From the sequence record MN850588.1: a stretch of DNA of 38,200 bases. One strand, 5' to 3'. Positions 1 through 15,619 of the stretch are shown one piece after another; position 1 is the stretch's first letter; the number at the start of each line of letters is the position of its first letter. The notes beneath the pieces were generated by a model. That model had not been told where the DNA came from and made no database searches. It saw only the letters and a list, made by a program, of their open reading frames with translations. The translations under genes and the position numbers were made by a program. The stretch is from Escherichia phage sortregn.

Positions 1-1029
1 AAAATATTCTTTGTAACGTTGTTGTAAGTAGGTCGGAGTAGTCAGCGCGATCTCCTCCTGACCGTTTGCGTAGGCGGGCCACACGTCCGAGTCGCGGCAG
101 TGTTTGAACACCTGGAGCGCGGTCTTGTACTGCAAGCGCCCGATCATGATTTGCTCCGGCGTTAATCGGTTCATGAGCGCCAGCCACGGCTCGTCTTTTT
201 CCTGAACGAGGAGTTTAGTCCCCGCCGGATCCTGGTTATAGGCCAGCTTGAAACAGTCATGTTGTAAAGCCATCTTGCACCAGTAGCCCAGATCGTGAGC
301 CAGACGACCGAAGCGCTCCGGCTCCGCGCTTTGCGTGGTCTTGTAGTCGATGATCTCGCCGATGTCCGTCACGCGGTCCAGGCGGACCTTAACCGGGACG
401 CCATCGATCACGCAGAACAGCGACAACTCCGGGACGCCCGTCTCAATGATCCGGCGGTAGTTATGATTGACCAGCAACACGTCGCGCATTGAGTGAACGC
501 GGTCCCAGTCCTTCGCCGGGACGATCTCGCGACCGTTCGCCTCTTTGACGGCTTGCGCCTCGATCTCGTGCCAGATATTAAGCGTCTCGCCCGGCATTTG
601 TACGGCGCGACACATAGCGATCAATTCTTCGGCGGTTTTGTTGGAGTAGCCCTTCTGACCGCGTTCCTTTAGCCAGCTTTGCATCTTCGCTACTGACGTG
701 ATCAACTCCGGGAAGTCCTCCGGGTTAGGCAGACGGAAAAACTCGCGCTCGAAGCGTTCCGGCTCAAGTAACATCGTGTGGGAAGTGGTCCCGAATGTGA
801 GCGGCTTCTGGGCGGAGTTTAGTTTTTTGTTGGCGGCTTCCTGTGCTTTCTGGAAACGCCAGGCGGCGGGGCATTTGCTGTAAATGGTCCAGAGGCTCGA
901 CCCGGTAATGTAGATCTCGTCCTCGTGGTATTGCTCGTTTGTAAGCTGGTCGGCGCTCCGGGCGTCGATAAACATCGAAGCCGCGACGTCGTAGGACGGG
1001 AGCGCCGGGATCAATCCGTTCGTTTGCAT
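1..1029 (-). CDS. PD-(D/E)xK family exonuclease (RecB/YqaJ-like), truncated at window edge; start codon at 1029
   Basis: Own translation of minus strand from ATG 1027-1029, open to position 1 (not in ORF track because it has no stop in window); contains GEIIDYKTT motif typical of RecB-family nuclease motif III; downstream of helicase and VRR-NUC genes in same orientation. Confidence 0.55.
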   Translation of the reverse strand, partial: MQTNGLIPALPSYDVAASMFIDARSADQLTNEQYHEDEIYITGSSLWTIYSKCPAAWRFQKAQEAANKKLNSAQKPLTFGTTSHTMLLEPERFEREFFRLPNPEDFPELITSVAKMQSWLKERGQKGYSNKTAEELIAMCRAVQMPGETLNIWHEIEAQAVKEANGREIVPAKDWDRVHSMRDVLLVNHNYRRIIETGVPELSLFCVIDGVPVKVRLDRVTDIGEIIDYKTTQSAEPERFGRLAHDLGYWCKMALQHDCFKLAYNQDPAGTKLLVQEKDEPWLALMNRLTPEQIMIGRLQYKTALQVFKHCRDSDVWPAYANGQEEIALTTPTYLQQRYKEYF

Positions 1030-1068
1030 TGTTGGGACCTCTCACTGGTGAATGTGAGAGGCATTAAA

Positions 1069-1536
1069 TCATTCTTTCGTGATGTTTGCAACTGGTAAAT
1101 TGAGATAATACTCCAGCGCCGCCAGGCCAGCCTCCGCACCCCATGCGACAGCAGTCCAGCCACCACGCGCCCGCGCTCGTTCGAGGACGGTCTTTTGTTC
1201 CGGCTTTAACCGGGACTTTCCGCGATTGTTCCGCTTCAACTCGATCAGCGCGAAGCCATAGCCGCCGCGAGGCTCCAGGAAAACCCAGTCAGAGATCCCG
1301 GCGAGGCGTCCGAGCGCGTTTAACTTCGCCCCGTACCGGGGATCGCTGGAGCCGCCGCTCTCGTTTACTGGGTGGAACGCCAGAAGCGCGTCGGGATCAG
1401 TGTGGGGATCGCCGTAAATCTCCCGGATGTTACTCGCCATGTTTTGCTGTTCGACGTCCTCGTGTGGCGAGTAGGTCGGAATGTGGTCCAGGTAGAACTC
1501 GCGCCAGAACTCAGTCTTTTTGTTTAATACAGGCAT
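1069..1536 (-). CDS. VRR-NUC domain nuclease
   Basis: ORF 1069..1551, start moved to internal ATG 1536 preceded by GAGGG; GYGFALIELKR and KPEQK motifs resemble VRR-NUC; directly abuts helicase stop. Confidence 0.55.
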   Translation of the reverse strand: MPVLNKKTEFWREFYLDHIPTYSPHEDVEQQNMASNIREIYGDPHTDPDALLAFHPVNESGGSSDPRYGAKLNALGRLAGISDWVFLEPRGGYGFALIELKRNNRGKSRLKPEQKTVLERARARGGWTAVAWGAEAGLAALEYYLNLPVANITKE

Positions 1537-1537
1537 G

Positions 1538-3580
1538 TTAAAAACCCTCATTCATGAATACTTTGTTAGTGATAACGTCTTTACCCTTGCCGATCTTCCG
1601 GTGGGTAACTTTCAGTGGGGCCATGAAGTACGGCGCGAAGGCGAGGACCTCCTGGGGCGTCCGTAGCTTCTTGATGTCGGCCCGTTTCTTTCCGTCCAGT
1701 ACGTGCTTAAGGATCCCATTGTGGAGCCATTCCTTTTTCGCCTGTGGGCTATCGCTACCGGGCCAGAATACTTGCCACGCCACGAACTGATCGCCGTCCT
1801 TCTCCAACTCGTACCGGAAGGCGATCCCCCCAGTCCCTCGCGCCAATTCCAGACGGAAGCCCCTCACGTTGTAGTAGTCGTCCCTGCTGTACGTGGTCCG
1901 GCTTAAGTTCTTGTTCGGATCTACGAGCGAGTTCCCGCAGCAGCGGCAGATCCTGGCTACGATGTCGTTTTGTGCGCCGCATCCCTTCTGTACCACCTTC
2001 CGCCCGCTGGAGTCCTTCCAGTCGTCGCAGGTGATGAACTGGAAAAAGTGTTCGCAGCGTTCGCCAGTGTCGGGATCGACGTAGCGGCAGCGTCGGGCGT
2101 GTTTGCCGTTTAGCGTCGGGTGGCCCGCCTTGCGACACTTCGGACAGTCTAACTCTAATTCTCCTTTGCTCTCGTCTGCGCTGTGCTGGTATGCCTCCAG
2201 CAGCGGGGAGAAATACAGGGATCCGAGTTCGTCAAGCGTCCCGGCATAGTCGAGGACCAGGTGATCCTCCTTCGTCACCCCGGCGGCGATGTGGAACGGC
2301 TTAAGGATGCGCATACCACGGCCTAAAAGCTGGGTTAGGAGCGTGAGGGATCCGATCTTCCGCAGTATCACGGACGTGTCCCAGAACGGGACGTTAACGC
2401 CAGTCGTTAGGGCGTTAACCTGGAATATAAATTTGATCTCCCCGGTATTGGCGCGGCGCAAAATGTCCATGCGCTTCTTGCCCGTCGTGTCGTCCGTGAT
2501 GATGGCGTAAGGCGTACCAGGGGGAAGGGCCTCCGCCGCCTGTTTGCAGTGTCTCACGCCCGCACACGTCACTAACACGCCGTTCCTGTGCTGGGCGATG
2601 GCGTATACCTCCGCCATGATCTCATGCGTGAGCTTTTTGTCCTTAAGGATCGCCTTTTGCATGGCGTCCATTTCGGCGTCCGTGAACTCCTTAATGCCAT
2701 CCTCGCCGGACGATCGCCACTGGTCGAGGTTGTAGTGGAGATTGGAGATCCCGAAGTGAGTCGGAACAACCGCGCCGACGCTTACCAGGTATTCCGTCGA
2801 GATCTCGCATACCTTCTTACGCCAAAATCCGGGCTGTTCGAGGTCTGGCTGGATGATGGACTCCACGCCACGGTATGGCGTCCCGGTGTAGCCAATAATG
2901 CGGAGTTCCTTCCCGTAGACCTCGCGGGCGCGTTGCTGGAATGTGCGGATAATGATCGTATAGCTGGAGCGACCCGCCTCGATCATCTCCTCGTAAGTCT
3001 CGCCCTTGTGCTCGCCGATAATGGTCGGCTCGTCGAAGCCGTCCAGGATGATCTCCCCGGTTTTCTCGTCCCGCAGGTACTCCGGGACCACGCGCTCCTG
3101 TGAGCGGATCAGGTCCTCAATGTTGACGTGATGGCATTCATCGATCAGCAGGAACAGCGGCGCGTAATGGGCGAGTGCCTGACCTGGGCGGAGTCCTCCG
3201 ATCACTGTACCCTCGGAGCCGACCACGATCGGGAAGTGTGCAGACTTGCGGCCCAGGCTGGCGCAGTAGATCGAGGAGTTCACGCCGAAGTTTTTCAACT
3301 CCTCGAAGTCCTGATCGATGATCTCCCCCTGGCGGGACAGGATCATGGCAGGGAAACCCATATCCCTGATCCGGCGGGCCAGCATGGAGATCATGATGGT
3401 TTTACCCGCACTCACGGCGGCGTCCACAATGACCGGGCCAGGATAGCGACGGATGGCCTCCGCGCAAGCCTCATACGCGACGAACTGGTGATCGTATGGT
3501 GTAACGGGCATATCTCCCAGGGCGCGGAGAATCGCGTCCCGGTCGAGCGCTTCGATCTGTTTCTCCAATGTCATTAACAT
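1538..3580 (-). CDS. SF2 DEAH-box DNA helicase with C-terminal zinc-ribbon region
   Basis: 680 aa ORF; Walker A AAVSAGKT, motif II LLIDECHH, motif III YTGTP, motif VI QLLGRGMR; cysteine clusters CPKCRK, CRCCG. Confidence 0.8.
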   Translation of the reverse strand: MLMTLEKQIEALDRDAILRALGDMPVTPYDHQFVAYEACAEAIRRYPGPVIVDAAVSAGKTIMISMLARRIRDMGFPAMILSRQGEIIDQDFEELKNFGVNSSIYCASLGRKSAHFPIVVGSEGTVIGGLRPGQALAHYAPLFLLIDECHHVNIEDLIRSQERVVPEYLRDEKTGEIILDGFDEPTIIGEHKGETYEEMIEAGRSSYTIIIRTFQQRAREVYGKELRIIGYTGTPYRGVESIIQPDLEQPGFWRKKVCEISTEYLVSVGAVVPTHFGISNLHYNLDQWRSSGEDGIKEFTDAEMDAMQKAILKDKKLTHEIMAEVYAIAQHRNGVLVTCAGVRHCKQAAEALPPGTPYAIITDDTTGKKRMDILRRANTGEIKFIFQVNALTTGVNVPFWDTSVILRKIGSLTLLTQLLGRGMRILKPFHIAAGVTKEDHLVLDYAGTLDELGSLYFSPLLEAYQHSADESKGELELDCPKCRKAGHPTLNGKHARRCRYVDPDTGERCEHFFQFITCDDWKDSSGRKVVQKGCGAQNDIVARICRCCGNSLVDPNKNLSRTTYSRDDYYNVRGFRLELARGTGGIAFRYELEKDGDQFVAWQVFWPGSDSPQAKKEWLHNGILKHVLDGKKRADIKKLRTPQEVLAFAPYFMAPLKVTHRKIGKGKDVITNKVFMNEGF
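1823..1833 (-). repeat. CTGGGGGGATC 11-mer copy (sense strand of helicase gene)
   Basis: Exact match read on minus strand; frame-checked against helicase residues T583-G-G-I586. Confidence 0.85.
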
Positions 3581-3645
3581 TGTTTATCCCTTGTAATATC
3601 ACTAAAGCATGATTTATAGTAACCGGGAAATAACCGGAGGGCAAT
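3581..3645. promoter_or_regulatory. divergent promoter region between helicase and primase operons
   Basis: 65-bp AT-rich intergenic region between divergent genes; tandem GTAACCGG / ATAACCGG repeats just upstream of the primase SD. Confidence 0.4.
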
Positions 3646-4464
3646 ATGGCGATCTACAAAAAAGAGGACGTTCTCGCGGCGATGCCCGGCAAATGGGAAC
3701 AGGCGCTCCTCGATCTTTGTGGCTGGGACCGCAAGGCGTTTAACGGCAATCATCAACCTTGCCCGATCTGTGGCGGGACGGACCGCTTTCGCTGGGGCCA
3801 TAAGCAACAGACGAAGAAGGCGGAGGGCTTCGGCTACTGTTCCGGCTCCTGTGGCGGCGCTCGTGATGGCATGTTTTGGTTCATGACCAGCCGATCGCAG
3901 CCGTTCAACGAGGCGATCAACGACCTGGGCGACTGGATAGGCGGACTCACCCCGGAGAAGCGGGAAACCATCGTCAAGGAGGCGCGGAAGTATGCCCGCC
4001 AGCAGGATAAGCCCGCGCAGGACTGGGAACTCACCCCGGAGGACGTGGACAAGATCATGAGCAAAGGCACGATGCGCGACGGATTCCTGTATGTTCCATG
4101 CGCTCGTCCACTGGGGGGATCCCTGGGGCCGTGGTGCAACGTGGCGAAGATCGGCTCCGACAGGTCCGTGGTGTTTGCCGCTGGTGGCCCGACGTGGGGC
4201 GCGGTAGGTCTGATCCACCCAGTGCCAGACGCTCCGGTGTATCTGGTGGCGGATCCGGTCCATGCGGTGAACGTGGCGGCGCGAGGGGAGGCGGAGGTCT
4301 GGCTTACGTTCCGGCCTATGAACGCGGTCCAGGCGTCGGCGATATATGACGGCGATCGGGAGATCCGGTTCGTCTACACTGACCCGGACGAGGTTTTCCT
4401 GTACGGCTACGAGAGGACGGGGAGGCCATGCGTCGGCGGGCATCTTGCCGGGGCGTTCGGGTAA
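3646..4464 (+). CDS. DNA primase (zinc-ribbon plus TOPRIM-like region)
   Basis: HQPCPICGGTDRFRW and GYCSGSCGG match the primase zinc-binding ribbon of P4-alpha-like primases; later DGD acidic motif; GGAGGG SD upstream. Confidence 0.65.
   Translation: MAIYKKEDVLAAMPGKWEQALLDLCGWDRKAFNGNHQPCPICGGTDRFRWGHKQQTKKAEGFGYCSGSCGGARDGMFWFMTSRSQPFNEAINDLGDWIGGLTPEKRETIVKEARKYARQQDKPAQDWELTPEDVDKIMSKGTMRDGFLYVPCARPLGGSLGPWCNVAKIGSDRSVVFAAGGPTWGAVGLIHPVPDAPVYLVADPVHAVNVAARGEAEVWLTFRPMNAVQASAIYDGDREIRFVYTDPDEVFLYGYERTGRPCVGGHLAGAFG
4111..4121 (+). repeat. CTGGGGGGATC 11-mer copy
   Basis: Exact match; frame-checked against primase residues L156-G-G-S159. Confidence 0.85.
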
Positions 4465-4489
4465 AAAAAAAGGCCCCGCACGAGGGGCC
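4463..4489 (-). terminator. intrinsic terminator oriented for leftward transcription
   Basis: GGCCCC-GCACGA-GGGGCC hairpin 4472-4489 preceded on plus strand by A9, so U9 follows the hairpin on the minus transcript. Confidence 0.55.
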
Positions 4490-4542
4490 AGTGGGCGCGA
4501 CCGATACCAGCGGGCGCTAAAGCAATGGTGAACAGTCAACAA

Positions 4543-4564
4543 ATAGCACTTTTTGTTAAAACAC
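4543..4564 (+). promoter_or_regulatory. conserved promoter-like element copy 1 (ATAGCACTTTTTGTTAAAACAC)
   Basis: 22-mer shared with 6855-6876 (2 mismatches), each about 60-70 bp upstream of a rightward operon start. Confidence 0.35.
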
Positions 4565-4616
4565 AAAACAGTTAATCAATTATCGTTAGTCACCACCAAC
4601 CAAAGAAGGGCAGCAG

Positions 4617-5258
4617 ATGAAAGACGAGAAAGACACCACCACGATCGATCATGTGGACGGCATGACCGAGGCGGAACGCGCAGCGGCAGACGTGACCACT
4701 GTTAGCGGTCGCCGCTTCAACAAATCCAAGACGCCGGACGCTATCCGCCAGAAGTGGCAGACCCCGCGCTGGCTGTTCGACTGGGCCGTGAAGCGCTTCG
4801 GGCAATTCGGGATCGATGTGGCAGCAGAAAAGGCTAACGCCCTTTGTGATGTCTACCTGGACGAGAAAACGGACGCCCTCAAGGATGGCGTGGAGTGGGG
4901 AGCCGAGGGCGGGCTGGCGTGGTGTAACCCGCCATACGCGGAGCCGCTTCCGTGGATCGTGAAGGCCATCCAGCAAGCGAAGGATCGCGACGTTACGACC
5001 GTGTTTCTCCTGAACTCCGACGCGTCTACGGCGTGGTTTAAGAAGGCGCTGGACGCCGGGAGCCTGGTTATCCATATCACCAGCGACGGCGAGAACTCCG
5101 GGCGCGTGGCGTTCGTGAAGGCCGGGACCGAAGTCGCGGGCAAGAAGAACAGCAAGCCGTCCGTAATGTTCGTTATCAAGCCGAAGAAGCGCGGACCGAT
5201 CAAGACTGAATATCTGACCCAGGCGGAGATGATGTTCGAAGGCAAAACGATGATTTAA
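4617..5258 (+). CDS. DNA N6-adenine methyltransferase (phage Dam-like)
   Basis: 213 aa; WQTPRWLFDW N-terminal motif and NPPY catalytic motif (WCNPPYAEP) typical of the phage N6A methylase family. Confidence 0.8.
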   Translation: MKDEKDTTTIDHVDGMTEAERAAADVTTVSGRRFNKSKTPDAIRQKWQTPRWLFDWAVKRFGQFGIDVAAEKANALCDVYLDEKTDALKDGVEWGAEGGLAWCNPPYAEPLPWIVKAIQQAKDRDVTTVFLLNSDASTAWFKKALDAGSLVIHITSDGENSGRVAFVKAGTEVAGKKNSKPSVMFVIKPKKRGPIKTEYLTQAEMMFEGKTMI

Positions 5259-5274
5259 CCGAGAGGACCCAGAG

Positions 5275-5856
5275 ATGATTATTTATGCACCAGTAAGCGC
5301 CTTACGCGCTCACCAACTGACCAAAGGCCAGCAGGACGTCCGCTATTACCTGAACGCGATCCACTTCATCGGCAACCGGATCCGCACGTCTAACGGTCAT
5401 GTTTGCATGGAAAGCACCCATAAGCTCGTCAACGCGCCGGAGGAGGGGATCATCCTCTCAATCTCCACGCCACCGACTGGGCGGATCTTCTCCGCCGTGA
5501 TCGACACGGACGCCGGGATCGTGTACTGGCTGGACATTCCGGCAGATAAGCCGAAGGACCTCGAAGAAGTGGACCACAAAAAGGCCCGCGTCGCTGTGGG
5601 GACCGTGGACATTGTGGAGGCCAATTATCCGAACGTGGACGCACTCCTGAACAAGGCCCGCGAGAACTCGAAGGCCGTCCACGAGATCGGCGTGGCGACG
5701 CCTTACCTCGGAATGATCGAGAAGCTGGCGAAGAAGTTCGGGATCAAGATGCCTTTTGCGAAACTGAACTTTAACGGCGCAGCGGAGCCGATCCGCGTGA
5801 ACCTGACCACGCCGGACGGCGAGGCCACCCTGATCATTATGCCCGCGAGAGTGTAA
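5275..5856 (+). CDS. hypothetical protein
   Basis: 193 aa ORF in Dam operon, no recognised motif. Confidence 0.5.
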   Translation: MIIYAPVSALRAHQLTKGQQDVRYYLNAIHFIGNRIRTSNGHVCMESTHKLVNAPEEGIILSISTPPTGRIFSAVIDTDAGIVYWLDIPADKPKDLEEVDHKKARVAVGTVDIVEANYPNVDALLNKARENSKAVHEIGVATPYLGMIEKLAKKFGIKMPFAKLNFNGAAEPIRVNLTTPDGEATLIIMPARV

Positions 5857-5858
5857 GC

Positions 5859-6083
5859 ATGGGACCTTATCAGACCTACCGCTGGAAATATTTCGTCCGT
5901 TGCGTGGCGGACGAACTCATGGATCGTAAACTGGTGGCCTCCCGCGAGGAGGCCGAGCACTTCGCCGAAGATCTGGAGGATTCGTTCGCGGAGGACTACG
6001 ACCCGCGTCCGATCTCAGAATGGCGAGCTATCGCGAAGAAAGACGCAGACGACTACGAGAAGGATCTGAAACGTGAAGCATAA
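5859..6083 (+). CDS. hypothetical acidic protein
   Basis: 74 aa ORF, tightly packed after preceding gene. Confidence 0.4.
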   Translation: MGPYQTYRWKYFVRCVADELMDRKLVASREEAEHFAEDLEDSFAEDYDPRPISEWRAIAKKDADDYEKDLKREA

Positions 6084-6825
6084 GGCGATCTTTTTATTCA
6101 ACCTGACCCGGATCATGGTGGACAAGTGGCTGGACGCTGGCGTGGAATGCTGGATGTATGACGGGCAGCACGAGCCAGGGATCCACCCAGACGCCGACGA
6201 GCCGAACCTGATCCGAGTGGGCCGGATGTTCGACGCGGACAACTCAATCAGGGAAGCGGCTCGCATCGCCGAGGAAGTCGGCCCCGGCGTGATCTTCGTG
6301 GCGTCCTTCGCTGAATGCACCGATCTAACCTGTACCGGGGCGCGATGGTGGGAAGCGAAGCGCAAGAAGGATCCGCGCTTCCAGGAGAAGGCCGTGGCGC
6401 TGGCTAAGATGGTGAAGCACGTCGCGGAATTTTGCAGCGTGGAGAACGGCAGCTTTGAACCCGCTTCGACGGTCCCCTGGATGCTGGAGAATCCGAAGAT
6501 CTCCCGACTCTCCACGATGTGGCGACCTTGCGATCACTGGTTCCACCCCTACAACTTCGGCGGCTACTTGCCGGAGGATCACCAGCATAGCCTCTACCCG
6601 GAGATCTACCCGGCGCGGGACGCGTACCCGAAGCAGACGGGGATCTGGTGCGGTGGCGGCTTCAAGATGCCGGAACACAAGAACGTCCCGGCGGTTAAGG
6701 ATAATCCCGGATGGTCGAAGCTGGGCGGATCTTCGACCCGAACGAAGAACATCCGCAGCGCCACCCCCGAAGGCTTCGCCGTCGCCGTGTTTATCTACAA
6801 CGCCACCCCGATCGCTCCATTCTGA
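6073..6825 (+). CDS. hypothetical protein
   Basis: 250 aa ORF with GTG start overlapping previous stop, followed by intrinsic terminator; no confident domain call. Confidence 0.5.
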   Translation: MKHKAIFLFNLTRIMVDKWLDAGVECWMYDGQHEPGIHPDADEPNLIRVGRMFDADNSIREAARIAEEVGPGVIFVASFAECTDLTCTGARWWEAKRKKDPRFQEKAVALAKMVKHVAEFCSVENGSFEPASTVPWMLENPKISRLSTMWRPCDHWFHPYNFGGYLPEDHQHSLYPEIYPARDAYPKQTGIWCGGGFKMPEHKNVPAVKDNPGWSKLGGSSTRTKNIRSATPEGFAVAVFIYNATPIAPF

Positions 6826-6830
6826 CACAA

Positions 6831-6850
6831 GGCCCTCCGGGGCCTTTTTT
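6831..6850 (+). terminator. intrinsic terminator
   Basis: GGCCC-TCCG-GGGCC hairpin followed by TTTTTT. Confidence 0.65.
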
Positions 6851-6854
6851 GCGT

Positions 6855-6876
6855 ATAGCACTTTTTGCTAAAGCAC
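6855..6876 (+). promoter_or_regulatory. conserved promoter-like element copy 2 (ATAGCACTTTTTGCTAAAGCAC)
   Basis: See copy 1; both followed by CAATTATC and CACCAAC-like segments. Confidence 0.35.
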
Positions 6877-6927
6877 TTTCAATTATCCTTTGTTATTATT
6901 CTTTCACACCAACACGAGGACGACGAA

Positions 6928-7152
6928 ATGAAACAGACTTTACTCCCGACCAAAACAAACAAGGCTCAACTGGTTAACCCGCTGTTACTGAAACAGGCGC
7001 ACATCCTGATCGAGGTGGCGATGATTCTCCGTAATCGCCTGAAAATGTACGCCGCCGGGCCAGCAGCTACAGCAGCTTTAAAGCGCGAGGCTCGCCAGGC
7101 AGAGGACGACGCTCGCGAACTGATCCGAGGCGCTTATGGTTATCGCCCGTAA
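6928..7152 (+). CDS. hypothetical protein
   Basis: ORF 6865..7152 with start moved to ATG 6928 preceded by GAGGA. Confidence 0.45.
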   Translation: MKQTLLPTKTNKAQLVNPLLLKQAHILIEVAMILRNRLKMYAAGPAATAALKREARQAEDDARELIRGAYGYRP

Positions 7153-7411
7153 GACTTCGCGCCGGGAGTTATGGGAGGCGGCGCAAGCCGCCGAACTGGA
7201 CGGCATGATCAGCGCAGTCTCCCGCGTGTTCGGCAAGGAGGCGATCGCCGACATATCGATCGAGACGCCGGACGGCGAGATGTACCTGAACAACCCGGAC
7301 CCGCACCACTGGCGCGTCGTGCCTGGGACTAAAGGCGGAAAGAACGCTCTCAAAGACGCGATCGCCGACACCAAAAACCGGAAGCACCTCAAAGGGGGAT
7401 CTCGTGGGTAA
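7136..7411 (+). CDS. hypothetical protein
   Basis: 91 aa ORF overlapping neighbours. Confidence 0.4.
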   Translation: MVIARKTSRRELWEAAQAAELDGMISAVSRVFGKEAIADISIETPDGEMYLNNPDPHHWRVVPGTKGGKNALKDAIADTKNRKHLKGGSRG

Positions 7412-7796
7412 AGTAACAGCGAAGATTATCGGATGGACTGACGAGCAGGACGCGGAACTGGTTCGCCTGGCTGGAACCATGCCAGCGCCGGACCTGGCGA
7501 AGAAGATAAAACGCAACTTCCGCCAGATGCAGGTCCAGGCGTCGAAGCTGGGGATCTCCCTGGCGTACCGCAGGACGTACACGCAATGGACAGCGGAGGA
7601 GGACCGGAAGCTGGTCCGCTTCTGGGAGGATAAACTGACCCCGGAGGACGTGGTGGAGATCGCAGAGACTACGGGGATCTATGAAGTGACCCGCGACGAA
7701 CTGACACACGAGCACGTCGCGACCTGGCTCGACAAATCGCGCCCGGCAGTACGCGGACGCCTGGCAAAATTCAAGAAAGAGGGGAAAATAGCATGA
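7404..7796 (+). CDS. putative DNA-binding protein with two W-x-x-E-(E/Q)-D helix motifs (GcrA/Myb-like)
   Basis: GTG start after GGGGG SD; GWTDEQDAELVRLAG and QWTAEEDRKLVRFW resemble GcrA N-terminal / Myb-SANT DNA-binding repeats. Confidence 0.45.
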   Translation: MGKVTAKIIGWTDEQDAELVRLAGTMPAPDLAKKIKRNFRQMQVQASKLGISLAYRRTYTQWTAEEDRKLVRFWEDKLTPEDVVEIAETTGIYEVTRDELTHEHVATWLDKSRPAVRGRLAKFKKEGKIA

Positions 7797-7895
7797 CTGA
7801 CTTACGCGGAAGTAAATACGTTATATGGGGCGTAATCGCAGCCAGCGCCGCGCTGTGGGCTTTAATCGGTTTTGGCGTGTCGATGGTACTCTAAA
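7793..7895 (+). CDS. possible small membrane protein (33 aa)
   Basis: ATGA overlap with preceding gene, hydrophobic sequence, terminator follows; below ORF-track size cutoff. Confidence 0.25.
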
Positions 7896-7930
7896 AAAAA
7901 GGGCCGCTTAAAAAGCGGCTCCTTTCGTTT
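7894..7930. terminator. bidirectional intrinsic terminator
   Basis: A8, GCCGCTT-AAA-AAGCGGC hairpin, then T-rich tract. Confidence 0.6.
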
Positions 7931-7990
7931 AAACGCCAGAGATGATCTACAATGCCCCGGCAGTATAACCAAACAAGAGAGGACCCGACA

Positions 7991-8788
7991 ATGGGGAATT
8001 TTTGGACCTACCACGAGAACACCCAGCGCGGCGGGATCGAACTGGGCCGAGTAATCGACCCGGCGAAAGCCTCGCGCCCGGTGATCTACCTAGAATCAGA
8101 TCCGCCAGGTCTGGACGCGGCGAAGGTTTCCGCCTTCATGCCGTACTACGTTTACACTCCGATGTCCTTCACTCAGGACTTGCCGGGAGTGGCTGGTGGC
8201 GATGCCGCCGCGACCTTCGTCCCTGGGGGGAGCACGTTCTCCGCGACGGTCGAAGTCGCCGGAGGTCAAGCGCCGTTTACTTATCAGTGGTACAAGTTTA
8301 GCGGCGGAGTCGGAACGGCGATCACGCTGGCGCAGAACGCCACGGCCCAGTCGAAGGTATTCCAGATCACCAACTACACCGCAGCGGCTCAACCCGGATC
8401 CGGTAACGGTGATTGGTATGTTGTCGTAACCGACGCGACCGGGGCCACGCTCCAGTCTCAGCGCATCCGCACGAAACAGGCGATCGCCTACTCCGTCAAC
8501 CTACCGACGACCGACACCTGGACCGTCGGGACCGCCGACGCCTTAACCGTCACCGTGAACGCGGCTACGGGCCTTGCGCCGTATACTCATGAATGGTTTA
8601 AGGATGGCGTTTCTCAGGGGCCGGGGACGTCGAGCGGGACGGGGAACGCGACCTCCACGCTATCGAAGGCAAGCCCGGCAGCGGGCGACGCTGGCGTGTA
8701 TTATTGCATTTCCACCAGCGCCAACACGAACCCGCCGAAAACCATCCAGAGCATTTCTTGCACTGTAACCGTTAACCCGGCAGCATAA
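7991..8788 (+). CDS. Ig-like domain protein (two Ig-like repeats)
   Basis: ORF 7952..8788, start moved to ATG 7991 after AGAGAGGA; repeats FTYQWYKF...DWYVVVTD and YTHEWFKDG...GVYYCIS resemble Ig I-set strands. Confidence 0.6.
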   Translation: MGNFWTYHENTQRGGIELGRVIDPAKASRPVIYLESDPPGLDAAKVSAFMPYYVYTPMSFTQDLPGVAGGDAAATFVPGGSTFSATVEVAGGQAPFTYQWYKFSGGVGTAITLAQNATAQSKVFQITNYTAAAQPGSGNGDWYVVVTDATGATLQSQRIRTKQAIAYSVNLPTTDTWTVGTADALTVTVNAATGLAPYTHEWFKDGVSQGPGTSSGTGNATSTLSKASPAAGDAGVYYCISTSANTNPPKTIQSISCTVTVNPAA

Positions 8789-8798
8789 GGAGCCGACT

Positions 8799-9011
8799 AT
8801 GTTTTATCACTCGCAGGACCTACCGGAGCGCGGCGGCGTTCTACTGACGAAGATCGCGGATCCTGGTTCGGCCCAGGTACAAGCGCGGGATCTGGTCTGG
8901 CTGGATGCTGACCCGACGGGCGGATCGTGGGAGCCACTCCCGGCAGTGTTCGACAAGGTGGACGCCTCCGGGCTGGAGAATCACCTCTCCTACTTCATCC
9001 CATACGCATAA
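8799..9011 (+). CDS. hypothetical protein
   Basis: 70 aa ORF with AGGAG SD, same operon as Ig-like gene. Confidence 0.45.
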   Translation: MFYHSQDLPERGGVLLTKIADPGSAQVQARDLVWLDADPTGGSWEPLPAVFDKVDASGLENHLSYFIPYA

Positions 9012-9040
9012 AAAAGGGGGCCAATCGGCCCCCTGTTTAC
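9010..9040. terminator. bidirectional terminator between convergent genes
   Basis: A6, GGGGGCC-AATC-GGCCCCC hairpin, then TGTTTAC. Confidence 0.65.
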
Positions 9041-9558
9041 TGCTGACGCTCCACGGCGTCGTAATTCACTTCGCAGACCTCCCCGGCGGTGATCGCCTTC
9101 TCCGCTATATCAGCATACCGTCGAGCAGCTTCTCCAGTCCCTCGGAGCAAGTCGGAATACATTCGGGCGGTCTTTTCCCCTGACGCCCTTCCGAGGGCAG
9201 CGGTCTGATCAGCGGCTTCGCGTCTGGCGTTCTCTTTGGCGGCTCGTTCGAGCAACCGATCAAGGGCAGCACCAGCAGCAGCAGAAGCGGCGCGAGCTTT
9301 TGCGGCCTGTTCGTTCGCATATTTTACGGACTCCTCGCGGGCAATGGCCCGGCCTTGTTCAATGATACGGGCGGCGGCTTGTGCGTTCGCTTCCTGGGTG
9401 GATTCCTTCGCGATCCGAGCATTGTCGCGAGCGGTCCAGCCCCGGTCCGTCCAGGCCGAGCCAGCCCAGAAAGATCCCCCCAGCGCCAGCAGCACGACAA
9501 CGACGAGCAGCAGCGATCGCCAGTGAGTCGAAAGGAACACGCGGAGGGCGGCGATCAT
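9037..9558 (-). CDS. Rz-like i-spanin
   Basis: N-terminal TM segment LLLVVVVLLALGG, coiled-coil rich; start overlaps endolysin stop (ATGA); embedded lipoprotein ORF. Confidence 0.6.
   Translation of the reverse strand: MIAALRVFLSTHWRSLLLVVVVLLALGGSFWAGSAWTDRGWTARDNARIAKESTQEANAQAAARIIEQGRAIAREESVKYANEQAAKARAASAAAGAALDRLLERAAKENARREAADQTAALGRASGEKTARMYSDLLRGTGEAARRYADIAEKAITAGEVCEVNYDAVERQQ
9105..9320 (-). CDS. Rz1-like o-spanin lipoprotein, embedded out of frame within Rz
   Basis: Signal peptide with lipobox LIGC, proline-rich mature part, fully nested in Rz gene. Confidence 0.55.
   Translation of the reverse strand: MRTNRPQKLAPLLLLLVLPLIGCSNEPPKRTPDAKPLIRPLPSEGRQGKRPPECIPTCSEGLEKLLDGMLI
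9473..9483 (-). repeat. CTGGGGGGATC 11-mer copy (sense strand of Rz gene)
   Basis: Exact match on minus strand; frame-checked against Rz residues L26-G-G-S29. Confidence 0.85.
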
Positions 9559-10034
9559 TCGTCTGCAACCTTACCGCCAGCGGCGCGGAAGTAGCCCAGG
9601 AAGTCCTCGAAAGTCTCCGTTCGCTGACCGTATGGGGAGCCAGGCAGGGAGGCCCAGATGGTCCGGCATTTCTTCACGGCGTCCTTGATCCGGCCCGCGT
9701 CGATGTCGTCCAGCGCTTTACGCTCGCTGATCTGCTGGAGGGCGATCTGGTCCTGTGATGCCGGAGAGAAGTCCGGGAGTCCAAGCTGTTTTTTGTACAC
9801 GTCATAATAGCGGCTTAACAACTGGTAGCGCCCGGCGGCGGTTGAATTGATCCCCAGCTTCGGCAGCTTTACGAGGCGGTTCGGATGCTTCGAGTAGTCG
9901 CTGAACAGGGAGCCGCCCACGATCACGTCGTAGCCGTGATTGCGCGTCTGCTGGCGTCCGTTGTCTGTTCCCTCGCCTACCGCGATCGCGTCCAGGAATG
10001 CCTTACGCTGGGGCGTGACTTCAAATTTTGCCAT
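9555..10034 (-). CDS. endolysin, phage lambda R-like lytic transglycosylase
   Basis: 159 aa; QRKAFLDAIAVGEGTDNGRQQTRNHGYDVIVGG and GRYQLLSRYYD closely resemble lambda R. Confidence 0.9.
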   Translation of the reverse strand: MAKFEVTPQRKAFLDAIAVGEGTDNGRQQTRNHGYDVIVGGSLFSDYSKHPNRLVKLPKLGINSTAAGRYQLLSRYYDVYKKQLGLPDFSPASQDQIALQQISERKALDDIDAGRIKDAVKKCRTIWASLPGSPYGQRTETFEDFLGYFRAAGGKVADE

Positions 10035-10374
10035 CGGTCTGATCCTCGTGGTTAGTGTGCGCCGGAGTAGCGCGGATTTTTTTCAGGAATGGGATCTTTT
10101 CGCTGGCCCAGTCGAGCGCCGTCTCTACGCCCACGTAGCCCAGGAACACCGAAGCCAGATAGCCCCAGGTGCCATGATCGACCCCGAAGAATGATAAAAT
10201 ATTATTCATACCGAAAGCGACAGCAGCGCAGATCGCCCCGCCGCTGACAATATCGCGGAACGGGTGGCGCAATTGCCAGTGACGGAACACAGCCACCGAT
10301 GCCGCGATGAACGAATAACCTAACTCAACGCGGTATAGCTGGAACAATTGCCATAGCGTCGTATGCTCAGACAT
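10021..10374 (-). CDS. holin, lambda S-like
   Basis: ORF 10021..10440 (TTG) with start moved to ATG 10374; TM helices and ASVFLGYVGVE resemble lambda S; overlaps endolysin start. Confidence 0.7.
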   Translation of the reverse strand: MSEHTTLWQLFQLYRVELGYSFIAASVAVFRHWQLRHPFRDIVSGGAICAAVAFGMNNILSFFGVDHGTWGYLASVFLGYVGVETALDWASEKIPFLKKIRATPAHTNHEDQTDGKI

Positions 10375-10472
10375 TGGAGGGATCCCTTTTAACAAGTGAG
10401 TGAACGCTAAAAGGGTAGCATGTGGAATCAAGGGCCGCAAAGCCCCTTTTCAGATGAAAGGTTAAGTAATTG

Positions 10473-10784
10473 TTATTTGCCGGAAAGAAGGCGCAAGGCG
10501 TCCATAGGAGACTCCGCCCCGGCTAACTGTTTAGCGAAGCCCTCCGCCGCCTGGCGCAGCTTGTCCACGTCCTCGAAGCCGCGATCGCGAGCCGCTTCCG
10601 CTTCGGTGTAGGCCGCTTCCCCGTCCATCGCCTGATCGTCCGGGTGGAACACCAGGTTAAACGACAATTCCGCGCCCTGGATCTCAGTGACCAGGCAGAT
10701 CGCCGGATTGTCGTCCGAGTCCTCGCCTTTGCGGACCAGAACCTGGCGATCGTGTGCTTCAAATAAGTGTGCGAAACGTTCCAT
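10473..10784 (-). CDS. hypothetical acidic protein
   Basis: ORF 10473..10889 with start moved to ATG 10784 after AAGAGG. Confidence 0.45.
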   Translation of the reverse strand: MERFAHLFEAHDRQVLVRKGEDSDDNPAICLVTEIQGAELSFNLVFHPDDQAMDGEAAYTEAEAARDRGFEDVDKLRQAAEGFAKQLAGAESPMDALRLLSGK

Positions 10785-10789
10785 AATAT

Positions 10790-11026
10790 TTACCTCTTGC
10801 CTTTGACCTGGAGCCGCTGACGACGGCCCCGCGTTTTGTTGTTGTACTCCTCGTGGGACAGTAGATCCCACGTTTCCCCCTCGTCCCACGTCACGAGCCG
10901 CCAGCTATAGCCCACGTTGAACGCTAACACCTTGCCGAAACCCCGGAGGCGCTTCGGTGACAACTCCCGCGCATAGTACCGCGCCAGAATGTCGTCGGCC
11001 TTCCGCTGGACCTTCTCCGGGATCAT
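10790..11026 (-). CDS. hypothetical basic protein
   Basis: 78 aa ORF, ATG start, overlaps next gene. Confidence 0.45.
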   Translation of the reverse strand: MIPEKVQRKADDILARYYARELSPKRLRGFGKVLAFNVGYSWRLVTWDEGETWDLLSHEEYNNKTRGRRQRLQVKGKR

Positions 11027-11400
11027 CCCGCAGGACCGGACAGGACAGCCAGCGCGAGGCGGGCGTGTTTGATCCGGCCTTCCAGAAATTCCCGCATCTC
11101 CTCGATCGCAGCCTCAGCCGTGACCGCTTCGAACTCGTCGCGATGGTTCCCGCGAGGGCCTTCCGGCAGCGAATAACAAGCCGTGTAACGCGTGATGCTA
11201 CGGCAGACGATCGAGACTGGTCCGCATGTGAGAATGTACCCGAACCCGCCGCCCAGCTTCTCCTCGCGCTCGTATGTCTGAACGCGGATCGGCATGGACT
11301 GGACGCTGGACTGGTGGCGAATGAGCGAGGCCACGCGCTCCGCGTCCTGCTGTGCGTCGGAGGCAGTGGGCCAGCGTGTTACTACTGTTACTTTCGACAT
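11023..11400 (-). CDS. hypothetical protein
   Basis: 125 aa ORF, AGGAG SD upstream. Confidence 0.45.
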   Translation of the reverse strand: MSKVTVVTRWPTASDAQQDAERVASLIRHQSSVQSMPIRVQTYEREEKLGGGFGYILTCGPVSIVCRSITRYTACYSLPEGPRGNHRDEFEAVTAEAAIEEMREFLEGRIKHARLALAVLSGPAG

Positions 11401-11441
11401 CTTCGACTCCTGGGTGGATGGCCCCCGAAGGGGCCGGGTGA

Positions 11442-11693
11442 TTAATAATATTCGTCGGCGCGGATCTTGTTACGATGGATAATGCGACGTGCTTCGAGTT
11501 CGCCGCGTGTGGTGTACTCGTCCACGTACTCCTCGATCTCCGGCTCCTCGCCTGTGAGTTCCGGCGCTTTCCATGAGAGATAACGCTTAACTGTGCCAGT
11601 TTTAACGAACGCCGGGAGCAGGTTTTTAAAGTTACGTGACCAGTGACGCCCGCGCTCTTGATCGCCTTTTACCATGATTGTTAAGTTTGCCAT
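11442..11693 (-). CDS. hypothetical protein
   Basis: 83 aa ORF. Confidence 0.45.
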   Translation of the reverse strand: MANLTIMVKGDQERGRHWSRNFKNLLPAFVKTGTVKRYLSWKAPELTGEEPEIEEYVDEYTTRGELEARRIIHRNKIRADEYY

Positions 11694-11766
11694 CGTTATC
11701 TCTCCGGTAGTGGGCGACCCATTGCCGCCCGGTGAAAGAACTATAACAACATTTGATAAATCGCTT

Positions 11767-12420
11767 TTAGCAATTCGTGCTATTCGGATAAAGATACTCG
11801 CTCAACCGGGCCACCAGCGGCTCGTCTGGACCGAACTCAAACAGCCCGCCGTCGTTCTTGATCGAGTGGTGGATCTCCGCCAGTAACGTCTCCGCCCGCT
11901 GGAGCCTGGACGCCGCCGCGTTATCATGCCCGATCAGCTTCGTGATCTCCTCCTCCAGATCAGCGCCGAGCGCCGACGTCGCCCAGTGTTCGGCATACTC
12001 GCGATCCTTCAACAACCGGATCAGGGCCAACACGTCCGACTCGATACCGACAGTCGGGCCAGGCTGGAGCCGTGGCTGGATCTCGTCGAGCGTCTGCTGG
12101 GTAGCGTTCAACGTCCGGCGGATCTTGTCCTGTTCGGCCTTGCTCAGGTCCAGGATCAGCGGCGAAGCCGGGAGGCCATTTAACCAGGCGATCAGGTCGT
12201 CGTAAGGCATGACGGAATAAGCCTTCTCCGACGCGTACCCGGTGATCCGCCAGTCAGTGGTCGAACTGTACGCCTCGGAAATATCATCCTCCCGCAATTC
12301 GCGATAGACGATCTCAGCGCGACCGTTGTCGATCTTGCTCAGGCTCTCGATCAGCGTCTCCGGGATGTGGATCACTTCTTCGCCATTCTTAACGGCGGTT
12401 ACTGCGACATATCTGATCAT
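11767..12420 (-). CDS. hypothetical protein
   Basis: ORF 11767..12447 with start moved to ATG 12420 (GAGGAAAGAGAG upstream, ATGA overlap with upstream gene). Confidence 0.5.
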   Translation of the reverse strand: MIRYVAVTAVKNGEEVIHIPETLIESLSKIDNGRAEIVYRELREDDISEAYSSTTDWRITGYASEKAYSVMPYDDLIAWLNGLPASPLILDLSKAEQDKIRRTLNATQQTLDEIQPRLQPGPTVGIESDVLALIRLLKDREYAEHWATSALGADLEEEITKLIGHDNAAASRLQRAETLLAEIHHSIKNDGGLFEFGPDEPLVARLSEYLYPNSTNC

Positions 12421-12851
12421 CTCTCTTTCCTCATGGCTTGTTTGCATTGTAAAGCGGCGAGGGCCATCTCCGGGCCAATCTCGACGCCTGGGGGGAACCC
12501 TGTTTCCGTGGTCGCCAGCTTCGAACGATCCACCTTAAGGTCCCGTAATTGTCCGGCCCGTTCCATTTGTCCGGCGTGTCGGCAGAGATCCAGCAGCTTC
12601 TTACGATCGACGCCGGGGCAGTCCCAGAACGCCGCGAATATTTGCTCCGATGGTCGCAGGGCGCAAAAAGCATTGCGCGTTTCAACCGTCGGCAGATAAG
12701 GATCCATTCTCCCCTGTTCTATCGCCTCAATGATCGAGGGATCGGTGGAGCGGATCTTCTCCAGAATCTCCAGGCGGCGCTCCATTGCCGTCTTGCGTTT
12801 AACCGTGGCCCGAAGTGGGGCGGCAGGTTTTGAATCATCAAACAGTGACAT
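12417..12851 (-). CDS. hypothetical protein, first gene of leftward operon
   Basis: ORF 12417..12977 with start moved to ATG 12851 after GGAGGG. Confidence 0.5.
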   Translation of the reverse strand: MSLFDDSKPAAPLRATVKRKTAMERRLEILEKIRSTDPSIIEAIEQGRMDPYLPTVETRNAFCALRPSEQIFAAFWDCPGVDRKKLLDLCRHAGQMERAGQLRDLKVDRSKLATTETGFPPGVEIGPEMALAALQCKQAMRKER

Positions 12852-12991
12852 ATTGCCCTCCGTTGTGTGGAAATCAATATTACATAACGTTACCATGATG
12901 TAAAGCCCAACCGTGATAATAATTGACTTTACAGTGGTAACAAGGGCGGGTAACATTGCGACCAGTAACGCAACCATGAGGTGATTAAACA
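12852..12991. promoter_or_regulatory. divergent promoter/operator region with GGTAAC repeats
   Basis: 140-bp intergenic region between divergent operons; GGTAAC at 12936-41 and 12949-54, AGTAAC at 12964-69, GTTACC at 12888-93; sigma70-like hexamers TTGACT 12923-28 and GATAAT 12914-19. Confidence 0.45.
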
Positions 12992-14656: not shown

Positions 14657-14911
14657 CCGGGGCGTGTGTTGGTAACGAGTAACACCCCCCCTTATAGGGG
14701 GGGATGTAACGTGTTACCGCAACCCACAAGGCCGAAAACATAGTTTTTTATGTGTACTGTTACCGACAAGCGACCGTAATCAAATCAATCATTTATGTGT
14801 GATTCGGTAACGGGGAAAGTAGCGAATCGGTCGCGGGGAAATCGGGGGGTAAAAATCGGGGGTGACCCCCGACAAAATCCCCGCCAAATAATCATTGATA
14901 AGTGATGCGAA
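14657..14911. promoter_or_regulatory. repeat-rich non-coding region, candidate replication origin/regulatory region
   Basis: 255 bp non-coding after replicative ATPase gene: C7-TTATA-G7 hairpin 14685-14703, six (G/A/T)GTAAC sites, TTATGTGT twice, three AAATCGGGG-like repeats, GGGGG-TGA-CCCCC palindrome. Confidence 0.4.
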
Positions 14912-15100
14912 ATGAGCGACGATAACAACGTTATTTTATTCCCCAGACGGACACCGATCGGAGAGGTTCAACCAGTACGATCGAACGTCTGGATCGAGCG
15001 CTTCGGAATGTGGAATTACTTCCTGATGGTAGCGACAACCATCGGCGCGATCGTGGTCGGACTGGCGGCGATCGTGTTTAACATGCTGGGCCTGATGTGA
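14912..15100 (+). CDS. small membrane protein
   Basis: 62 aa ORF with one C-terminal hydrophobic helix. Confidence 0.4.
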   Translation: MSDDNNVILFPRRTPIGEVQPVRSNVWIERFGMWNYFLMVATTIGAIVVGLAAIVFNMLGLM

Positions 15101-15328
15101 GGCCCGTCACGACGACGAGGAAACGAGGAGATGATGATGAATGACGAACACGGCAAGAAATCCAACGTAGCGGACGTCTCGCATATGTATGTAGGCCCGA
15201 ACCAACGCGCCTCACTGCTGGAGAAGGCGTTCGAGATGTTCAGAGCGGCGGCGTCGTGATCCTGGACTCGTCCGTGGTCGAATGGTCCGAAGTGGAGGCA
15301 TACCGCCCGGCAAAGTGAGGGCCGGGAC

Positions 15329-15339
15329 CTGGGGGGATC
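15329..15339 (+). repeat. CTGGGGGGATC 11-mer copy
   Basis: Exact match, third reading frame relative to codons (T-W-G-D-R in track ORF). Confidence 0.8.
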
Positions 15340-15425
15340 GCCAGGCGGAGCGGCCTCCCTACTACGTGCAGATCAATAACCGCGTAGTGACCCCGGCGGA
15401 GTTCCACCGCCAGAAGCAGGAATTT

Positions 15426-15554
15426 ATGAGGGGCGCGGTGATTGTAGTCCCACCGGACGAACCAACGTTCCCGATCGGCGAGATATGTCGCGGGATCCTG
15501 ATGATGTTCGGGCTATTCGCCCTGCTGTGGTTCGTGCTTACCTTCTTAAGATAA
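15426..15554 (+). CDS. possible small membrane protein (42 aa)
   Basis: Internal ATG of ORF 15282..15554 preceded by AGGA; hydrophobic C-terminus; start uncertain. Confidence 0.3.
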   Translation: MRGAVIVVPPDEPTFPIGEICRGILMMFGLFALLWFVLTFLR

Positions 15555-15619
15555 CGCTTGCATGATGTACGCCCCGGCGATATGCTGGGGCCGTTTCCAC
15601 CCACGAGAGAGATCGAACA

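Follow-up and report, generated by a model that had tools for sequence, protein, structure and literature searches.

The DNA adenine methyltransferase (Dam) of phage T1 (gp20) belongs to a protein family, defined by the models PF05869 and TIGR01712, that is found in Drexlerviridae, Stx phages, and HP1, and the phage enzymes of this family that have been characterized (those of T1, VT-2, and HP1) are specific for GATC. Orphan phage methylases of the Dam type are common, yet their role is still described as poorly understood (PMC7556043). This article examines a member of the family encoded by Escherichia phage sortregn (MN850588.1), a lytic podophage of the P22-like kind (Murrayvirus) whose replication module is T1-like, together with the genome in which it resides; "the window" refers throughout to the whole stretch of DNA that was analysed, 38,200 bp with 59.3% GC. 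T1-like genomes carrying this Dam family show little or no excess of GATC, whereas the sortregn gene heads a cassette that also encodes a sliding-clamp homologue and a putative second methylase, in a genome that is saturated with GATC. That both dam and dcm genes are present has already been stated for the phage group to which sortregn belongs (preprint of Olsen et al., 2020, PMC7552041).

Avoidance of restriction sites and the anti-restriction activity of orphan methylases have been described in phages (e.g., PMC6286503), and sortregn resembles these cases in its purge of palindromic hexamers and in possessing methylase genes that are not accompanied by a partner nuclease. However, GATC is under-represented in 46 of 46 phages whose hosts encode Type IIM GATC-recognising enzymes and is altogether missing from phage J8-65, whereas sortregn lies at the opposite extreme. 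A lineage-specific, genome-wide GATC excess is likewise known from mycobacteriophage subcluster B3, in which GATC and GGATCC are over-represented about fourfold, without explanation (Siranosian et al., 2015, PMC4841201). GGATCC stands out in B3, whereas in sortregn the NGATCN contexts rise together with the exception of AGATCT; according to the reference list of the same article (PMC4841201), mycobacteria are without Dam methylation. The literature searched contains no mention of GATC density or frequency in Murrayvirus, Sortsnevirus, or Skarprettervirus, and as far as could be found the codon-level saturation and the exemption signatures described below are unreported there, while the operon genes had been partly annotated before.

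GATC excess and synonymous codon choice

The window holds 494 GATC sites in 38,200 bp (1 per 77 bp), including 45 in the interval 4617-7796 (1 per 71 bp). Base composition predicts 138, a 3.6-fold excess, and the claim of the initial annotation that GATC occurs far more often than 1 in 256 is thus borne out on exact counting. A maximal-order Markov model predicts 344 sites, and a null in which synonymous codons were permuted within each of 51 genes (mapped from the proteins of Salmonella phage Lumpael), so that the proteins and the codon usage of every gene were kept, predicts 291 +/- 11 (1.7-fold; z = 19-21). Under this synonymous null no other 4-mer is as strongly over-represented as GATC, the runner-up reaching a z of about 10.

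The excess can be read from individual codon choices. Among the codon junctions preceding isoleucine that could be GATC, 70% are G/ATC in sortregn (referred to below as occupancy), compared with 17% in Escherichia coli. Isoleucine is encoded by ATC in 91% of cases after a codon ending in G and in 62-65% otherwise, aspartate by GAT in 53% before C versus 13% before G or T, glycine by GGG in 86% before ATC versus 24% elsewhere, and glutamate by GAG in 100% before ATC versus 63% elsewhere; no preference for G-ending codons exists before ATT, ATA, or ATG. A 50-kb piece of E. coli K-12, treated by the same method with its own annotation, gave a ratio of 1.03 and an occupancy of 0.17, indicating that the bias is not a property of the host translation apparatus. 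Non-coding DNA is also enriched (18 sites versus 8.5 expected, P = 0.005), with 6 of these sites located inside an HNH open reading frame (ORF) at 36452-36892. No extended motif surrounds GATC: its flanks give a flat logo, and the increase of CGATCG and GGATCC is only slightly greater than that of GATC itself. The excess is confirmed as real and as built by synonymous codon choice beyond chance, base composition, and codon usage, and a composition artefact is excluded as its cause.

Nearly every gene on both strands participates, the exceptions, which involve small numbers, being the Dam gene (6 sites versus 5.8 expected) and the gene for the single-stranded DNA-binding protein (SSB; 2 versus 2.4). 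Spacing is Poisson-like (coefficient of variation 0.94, largest gap 519 bp), and apart from the 3-nt coding period the sites show neither clusters nor regular spacing nor helical phasing. GATC is absent from the two intergenic promoter regions next to the operon, at 3581-3645 and 4465-4616. In orthologous contexts with conserved amino acids, 75-91% of window GATC sites are also GATC in relatives. Conservation of particular sites was nevertheless rejected as a description of this retention: against Skarpretter and Stutzerimonas phage STP9, with which only 38-39% of four-fold sites are identical, 40-62% of the window's non-GATC potential sites are GATC in the orthologue, and this pattern at long divergence is that of a pressure acting on potential sites in general. 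Such a pressure argues against a regulatory code and is consistent with selection for density or with biased mutation. Methylation-dependent regulation, raised as a possibility in the initial annotation, accordingly finds no support in sites that are intragenic, randomly spaced, missing from the operon promoter regions, and not position-specific at long divergence.

Genes for Dam, the clamp-like protein, and the putative second, Dcm-like methylase are carried together by Lumpael, IME_EC2, Sortsne, Kc237, IME279, Skarpretter, and STP9. Across the eight genomes with the cassette GATC stands at 1.43-1.85 times the codon-preserving null (z = 10-23), with a site every 78-100 bp in the relatives and the strongest enrichment, 1.85-fold, in Skarpretter. 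Pseudomonas phage phiKMV (62% GC), which has none of the cassette genes, shows a ratio of 0.92, and the Bonnellvirus J8-65 (an Enterobacteria phage, L008; 55.6% GC) has 0 GATC in 40 kb versus 131 expected. In a survey of 77 IMG/VR loci with a Dcm-like homologue, ratios of at least 1.47 were found only where Dam occurred together with a clamp homologue of more than 40% identity, a group that includes the Giessenvirus-size locus L021; one 11.9-kb locus with both genes (L016) reached only 1.24, and the other loci ranged from 0.0 to 1.38. Four of the Dcm-like carriers (contigs L074, L080, L082, and L089) have 0-6 GATC in 20 kb. This distribution identifies the excess as a trait of one lineage that does not follow from GC content or from possession of either Dam or the Dcm-like gene.

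Palindrome purge and the exemption of GATC

As many as 28 of the 64 palindromic hexamers are absent from the window, and the non-GATC palindromes together number 221 versus 581 expected. The missing hexamers include CGGCCG (29 expected), CCGCGG (28), GCCGGC (26), CAGCTG (20), and CTGCAG (16), and GCGCGC and CGCGCG occur once each versus about 39 expected; TCGCGA, AGCGCT, GACGTC, ACGCGT, TCATGA, and CTTAAG (11 versus 2.8) are left untouched. CTAG occurs 4 times, and there are no EcoKI or EcoBI sites. By contrast, the four hexamers with a GATC core are present at 0.9-2.2 times expectation (e.g., CGATCG 63 versus 30, GGATCC 38 versus 17, and TGATCA 20 versus 13), and this contrast between purge and exemption is seen in every member of the clade.

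A further exemption concerns ATCGAT, the ClaI-type site. All 20 copies in the window overlap a GATC (e.g., at 403, 3140, 4644, 20751, and 37755), whereas 5.1 naked copies are expected under the codon null; none of 143 copies in nine clade genomes is naked, as against 10 of 17 in E. coli, and in the Webervirus Sin4, which has Dam, only 2 of 20 are naked when 51% are expected to be (P = 1e-4). ClaI-type enzymes cannot cleave a site that a Dam methyl group overlaps, so that the evolution of these phages has proceeded as if their GATC sites were reliably methylated and the methylation protective. The host Dam leaves lambda DNA only about 50% methylated (PMC3299994), which provides a reason for carrying a phage-borne enzyme. 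An equivalent Dam-overlap exemption at NruI, BspHI, BspEI, TaqI, and Hpy188I-type sites was considered and rejected: exemption is complete for ATCGAT alone, TCGCGA and TCATGA being unavoided and TCCGGA absent.

The methylase operon and neighbouring genes

Positions 4617-6825 form one transcription unit, served by a promoter-like motif and an intrinsic terminator of its own and encoding the T1-type Dam, the clamp homologue, a 74-aa protein, and the enzyme predicted to have a C5-cytosine-methyltransferase (C5-MTase) fold (Table 1); the genes are separated by gaps of 16 and 2 nt and then an 11-nt overlap. The initial annotation, which placed an NPPY methyltransferase at the head of an operon with ORFs of 193, 74, and 250 aa and an internal terminator behind them, was correct on both counts.

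Table 1. Coordinates of the features discussed (positions in the window).
Feature	Position	Strand	Remarks
494 GATC sites	1..38200		whole genome; 473 coding, of which 330 at xxG/ATC and 111 at GAT/C
Promoter-associated motif TAGCACTTTTTGTTAAAACAC, copy 1	4544..4564	+	upstream of Dam gene; TATNNT-like hexamer ~17 nt downstream
T1-type DNA N6-adenine methyltransferase (Dam), 213 aa	4617..5258	+	PF05869, TIGR01712, phrog_111
Two-domain beta-sliding-clamp homologue, 193 aa	5275..5856	+	by profile and predicted structure
74-aa protein, phrog_2676	5859..6083	+	3' end overlaps next gene by 11 nt
Putative C5-MTase-fold enzyme (Dcm-like), 250 aa	6073..6825	+	GTG start; by predicted fold and motif pattern
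Intrinsic-terminator-like hairpin AAGGCCCTCCGGGGCCTT, then TTTTTT	6829..6852	+	G+C-rich stem 6829-6846, right after stop codon of 250-aa gene
Promoter-associated motif TAGCACTTTTTGCTAAAGCAC, copy 2	6856..6876	+	just after terminator; heads second unit
Small ORF, 74 aa from ATG 6928 (95 aa from 6865 in Lumpael annotation)	6928..7152	+	IME_EC2 counterpart annotated 75 aa
91-aa protein, phrog_2817	7136..7411	+	weak DUF7334 match
130-aa protein, two Myb/SANT-like helix-turn-helix repeats	7404..7796	+	WTDEQD at residue 11, WTAEED at residue 62; phrog_323 E 1.3e-18
Bidirectional terminator-like hairpin	7901..7921		closes second unit

The Dam protein matches PF05869 over profile positions 1-168 of 169 (E 5.7e-44; 150.2 bits, cut-off 28.1) and the TIGR01712 phage_N6A_met equivalog with 116.6 bits (cut-off 97.05), carries the catalytic (D/N)PPY motif as NPPY at residues 104-107, and shares 39% identity with a Sin4 protein whose annotation names it a T1 gp20 homologue. 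By analogy with the characterized members of its family, its target is probably the adenine of GATC, and the sparing of ATCGAT copies that overlap GATC lends this some indirect support from the genome. The non-specific adenine methylase Hia5 was rejected as a model, its family being of the DPPY, Dam/MboIA-like type, about 281 aa long, and outside PF05869. Searches of the PDB with the single sequences of the Dam, clamp-like, Dcm-like, and 130-aa proteins returned no match. The 74-aa protein of the operon has no Pfam or NCBIfam match, and it was rejected as a conserved partner of the Dcm-like enzyme, since the small ORF ahead of the Dcm-like gene in Sin4 shows no resemblance to it.

The 193-aa protein is a beta-sliding-clamp homologue, as judged from its sequence profile and predicted structure, although not an orthologue of DnaN. 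Among PDB entries, a profile built from 21 homologues finds E. coli DnaN (residues ~139-367, E 7e-6), the aligned part taking in RYYLN and the MPxR at the C-terminus; of the sequence and profile searches of the PDB, this one alone gave real matches. The AlphaFold (AF2) model (predicted local distance difference test score 83) retrieves only beta clamps among the top 50 Foldseek matches in the PDB (E 1.6e-6, TMq 0.59). The label of RusA-like Holliday junction resolvase that it bears in RefSeq and PHROG (phrog_3007) was therefore rejected, there being no RusA match in Pfam and the top structural and profile matches all being clamps. The original GenBank records of IME_EC2 and KMB41 name the protein beta-clamp, and the same gene is present in L001-L004 and L006. 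Compared with DnaN, which has three domains (~366 aa), the homologue retains the fold and the sequence profile of domains II-III only, so that the canonical head-to-tail dimer cannot form, and the phage genome has no annotated clamp loader or polymerase; T4 gp45 and PCNA are likewise two-domain clamps. A clamp homologue may not be confined to the enriched clade, weak clamp-like matches (26-31% identity) being present in two IMG/VR loci, L019 and L050. The early suggestion that the 193-aa and 250-aa proteins could be modification or nucleotide-metabolism enzymes fails for the former and may hold for the latter, which has a predicted C5-MTase fold.

The model of the 250-aa enzyme has the C5-MTase catalytic fold, and its best structural matches are DNA cytosine-C5 methyltransferases. 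Its family, of which 47 homologues were aligned, has an invariant C82 in F(P/A)ECT and an invariant E139-N140-P141, which pattern and model place at the catalytic Cys of motif IV and the Glu of motif VI, and contains apparent equivalents of several class motifs, namely GF(P/A)ECTDLTxxGA (motif IV), ENP in place of ENV, an acidic residue after strand 2, and ATPxGFA (motif X). It thereby resembles in structure and motif equivalents both the PF00145 C5-MTases (M.HhaI, DNMT3) and the phage C5-carboxymethyltransferase CmoX (PMC12783734), but differs from them in its short length, in the very small region at the place of the target-recognition domain, and in having EC instead of PC. The protein has no Pfam match at E <= 0.1 (PF00145 included) and no NCBIfam match, and hhalign of the family alignment against M.HhaI gave a probability of 0.1% and no usable alignment, so that the motif correspondences rest on pattern and fold; the matches to fluorescent proteins from a PDB profile search with the Dcm-like alignment were dismissed as chance. 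CCWGG is at expectation in the window (161 versus 150). An invariant arginine in the NIRSATP segment of the family adjoins the motif X position at which an arginine of CmoX binds the carboxylate of carboxy-S-adenosylmethionine. With the motif I glycines lost in the sortregn clade and this arginine near the CmoX site, the enzyme might conceivably transfer a group other than methyl.

The 21-nt motif TAGCACTTTTTGYTAAARCAC occurs exactly twice in the window, before the Dam gene and after the terminator (0 occurrences in 100 shuffles), and the same motif with TATNNT ~17 nt later has 12 copies in Sin4 and 6-7 in Skarpretter and STP9. Its general form, TAGCAC(TTTTT/GAATT)GYTAAA followed by TATNNT ~17 nt on and then by a CACACCAAC-like leader, is common to the clade and the T1-like Webervirus. 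It probably represents a common promoter class, with a spacing unlike that of a standard -35/-10 pair, and its occurrence in sortregn, Sin4, Skarpretter, and STP9 assigns both units to one T1-like class. The annotated TTG start of the first small ORF of the second unit, at 6865, falls inside this motif, which makes ATG 6928, after GAGGA, the likelier start; the ORF has no Pfam or NCBIfam family match.

The last gene of the second unit encodes the protein described in the initial annotation as GcrA-like on account of W-T-D-E helix motifs. It shares the W-T-x-E-x-D helix pattern with both Caulobacter GcrA and Myb/SANT proteins, and is best regarded as a generic Myb/SANT-type helix-turn-helix repeat protein, that part of the description being sustained; membership of the GcrA family is not. 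The protein itself is sub-threshold for the Myb models (15.7 and 14.8 bits versus cut-offs of 22.9 and 24.4) and has no GcrA (PF07750) match at E <= 0.1. Its 170 homologues (E down to 4e-24) are mostly long, with 3-10 tandem repeats, and include proteins that pass the Myb_DNA-bind_6 and Myb_DNA-binding thresholds; one passes the GcrA threshold, over the N-terminal profile positions 2-51 only, and none of those scanned matches beyond profile position 74. The C-terminal sigma-70-binding domain of GcrA is absent, residues 59-130 forming a second Myb-like repeat and a tail, and the protein thus appears as a two-repeat member of a multi-repeat family. Skarpretter has no detectable homologue.

The closest relative is Lumpael (NC_048113, Murrayvirus), which is 98.8% identical to a 4-kb query around the operon; IME_EC2, sortsyn, and related coliphages are 85-92% identical to the same query. 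The window is oriented as the reverse complement of Lumpael and circularly permuted, and about 3.3 kb of Lumpael are missing from it, corresponding to window ~15241-15650 versus Lumpael (L001) 1932-5235, where several small hypothetical genes are located. Of the genes beside this gap, one is truncated and another is 62% identical, and the gap may represent a deletion or an assembly gap. The replication and recombination module around Dam is T1-like and comprises a primase, a helicase, VRR-NUC, exonuclease VIII, Erf, and SSB, the primase, with its PF08273 zinc ribbon, being encoded just upstream of the operon; the annotations of the clade genomes include neither a DNA polymerase nor a clamp loader. 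Elsewhere in the window, the minus strand encodes a 78-aa ORF with a ParE-like toxin domain (PF24732, E 1e-18; 10790-11026), a 65-aa crAss001_48-related protein (PF21825, E 3e-17; 35980-36177), and a 146-aa ORF (36452-36892) with CxxC pairs and an HNH-type motif (VVGHHDDY...CEKHHKEWH). The last of these lies in a stretch that is unannotated in Lumpael and matches by position an "endonuclease" gene annotated in IME_EC2 and Sortsne.

Explanations for GATC saturation

The reading that is favoured here, and to which we assign an even chance of being correct, is that the phage Dam protects GATC and that selection at the DNA level has driven the genome towards saturation as a dense shield of self-methylation. 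On this reading, the phage enzyme would methylate GATC as phage DNA is replicated, without relying on the host Dam, which is limiting; GATC and overlapping sequence would become safe from restriction; and restriction pressure would purge nearly all other palindromic hexamers while methylated GATC is tolerated. Selection would then raise GATC density towards saturation, with N6-methyladenine making up ~6.4% of adenines if every GATC is methylated, versus ~2% in the host sample. The weakest step is the last, in which the excess itself would serve as a broad shield, possibly aided by the cytosine enzyme at the same or overlapping sites.

Several observations weigh against this reading. Protection accounts for tolerance of GATC, that is, a ratio of about 1, and not for a 1.5-1.9-fold excess with 70% occupancy, so that restriction evasion explains the benefit of saturation only partly; the self-methylation proposed at the outset as a means of restriction evasion is supported by the palindrome purge and the ATCGAT exemption only to this extent. 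BamHI-, PvuI-, and BglII-type enzymes are not blocked by the N6-methyladenine that Dam produces, and the exemption of their sites hence calls either for another modification or for hosts in which enzymes of these types are rare. The exemption may point to a further modification at GATC or close to it, with the C5-like enzyme as a candidate for introducing it. That enzyme is, however, a putative C5-MTase-fold protein, and the FLFDxTGxM of its family, with the motif I glycines, is replaced in the sortregn clade by FLFNLTRIM, without glycine. Related gene sets also occur without a comparable excess: Sin4, which has homologues of Dam (39%) and the Dcm-like protein (33%) and no clamp homologue, is at 1.15-fold, the ~50-kb, 50% GC loci L019 (0.92-fold) and L050 (1.13-fold) combine Dam at 37-38% with a Dcm-like gene and their weak clamp match, and many phages with a Dcm-like gene avoid GATC altogether. 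Single-genome tests of the ATCGAT exemption reach only P = 0.03-0.08 each once the high GATC context is allowed for, and the literature searched holds no methylation data for sortregn or its relatives.

Among the alternatives, it is unlikely that the benefit lies with the GATC readers of the host, in which dense sites, passing from the hemimethylated to the fully methylated state through the phage Dam, would attract or control SeqA, MutH/MutL/MutS, or other host factors on phage DNA replicated by the host DNA polymerase III, the clamp homologue providing coupling to the fork; nascent DNA might thereby be organized or protected, mismatch repair controlled, or host factors titrated. This would suit phages for which no polymerase is annotated, and the clamp homologue, encoded between two methylase genes, is the sole gene found to be confined at >40% identity to the enriched clade; its MPxR aligns with the C-terminus of E. 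coli beta, a region that is part of the pocket for partner proteins. Strong selection on GATC in both directions among coliphages (J8-65 with 0 versus 131) also points this way. On the other hand, mismatch repair works with far sparser GATC, the sites have no spacing signature of phasing or clusters, and the link with the clamp is a co-occurrence within one lineage only; Pfam scans of ~30 of the 51 window proteins, all of them non-structural, found no MutH-, SeqA-, Vsr-, or DpnI-like gene. The want of a Vsr-like gene in this set bears equally on the proposal that GATC is a by-product of lineage-specific biased correction that turns near-GATC sequences into GATC, as Vsr very-short-patch repair inflates CCWGG in E. 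coli. A process of that kind would act on all potential sites, as is implied by the 40-62% of the window's non-GATC potential sites that are GATC in the most divergent orthologues, and uniformly over genes, strands, and non-coding DNA, and the C5-methylase-like gene gives it a possible substrate, C5-methylases creating T:G mismatches via deamination. The depletion of one-mismatch neighbours is, however, not specific to GATT/AATC (0.69, compared with 0.71 for CATC/GATG), and 70% occupancy is far beyond the known effect of very-short-patch repair, so that this explanation is considered improbable. We are similarly doubtful of a replication-coupled hypermodification module, in which the clamp would tether Dam and the C5-enzyme, the latter would act on the cytosine within GATC or within hexamers that have a GATC core, perhaps adding a group other than methyl, and saturation would give near-global modification.

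The remaining alternatives carry still less weight. Control of transcription by methylation, with the 130-aa protein reading methylated GATC, is very unlikely: the protein has two Myb-type repeats, some of its homologues match the N-terminal DNA-binding part of GcrA, and its gene adjoins the methylase operon behind the same promoter-like motif, but it has itself no GcrA match, its second half being a Myb-like repeat, the promoter regions contain no GATC, 473 of the 494 sites are intragenic and randomly spaced, and Skarpretter reaches 1.85-fold without a detectable homologue. There is equally little reason, and perhaps slightly less, to suppose that a phage enzyme of DNA metabolism recognises GATC or initiates at it, with frequent priming under selection. 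Phage primases of the T7 zinc-ribbon type recognise short fixed template sequences, such a primase is encoded just upstream, and a palindrome would serve both strands; nevertheless, the restriction-exemption signatures would be left unexplained, and T1-like phages with a homologous primase (e.g., Sin4) are not enriched. Least credible by far is a passive by-product of high G+C and codon usage. A preference for ATC and for G-ending codons does lift GATC, the synonymous null of 291 being 2.1 times the mononucleotide expectation, but the observed count lies far above that codon-preserving null (z = 19-21), codon choice depends on the neighbouring base only where GATC results, and phiKMV and J8-65, at 62% and 55.6% GC, have a ratio of 0.92 and no sites, respectively.

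Whichever explanation applies, the sortregn clade has rewritten its synonymous sites to about three times the GATC density of its host, whereas other coliphages delete GATC completely, and this contrast between saturation and deletion turns the cost or gain of GATC to a phage in a Dam-positive host into a testable question, in a clade with cultivable E. coli K-12 phages and clear controls. Were the hypermodification module to prove correct, hypermodification would have been reached via rewriting of the genome and not via the nucleotide pool. A propagated mis-annotation as a RusA-like resolvase can be corrected to that of a sliding-clamp homologue, and the putative C5-MTase-fold proteins constitute an uncharacterised family that is widespread in phages. 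The exemption of ATCGAT and of hexamers with a GATC core makes protection by methylation readable from sequence alone, and may help to predict the targets of methylases elsewhere.

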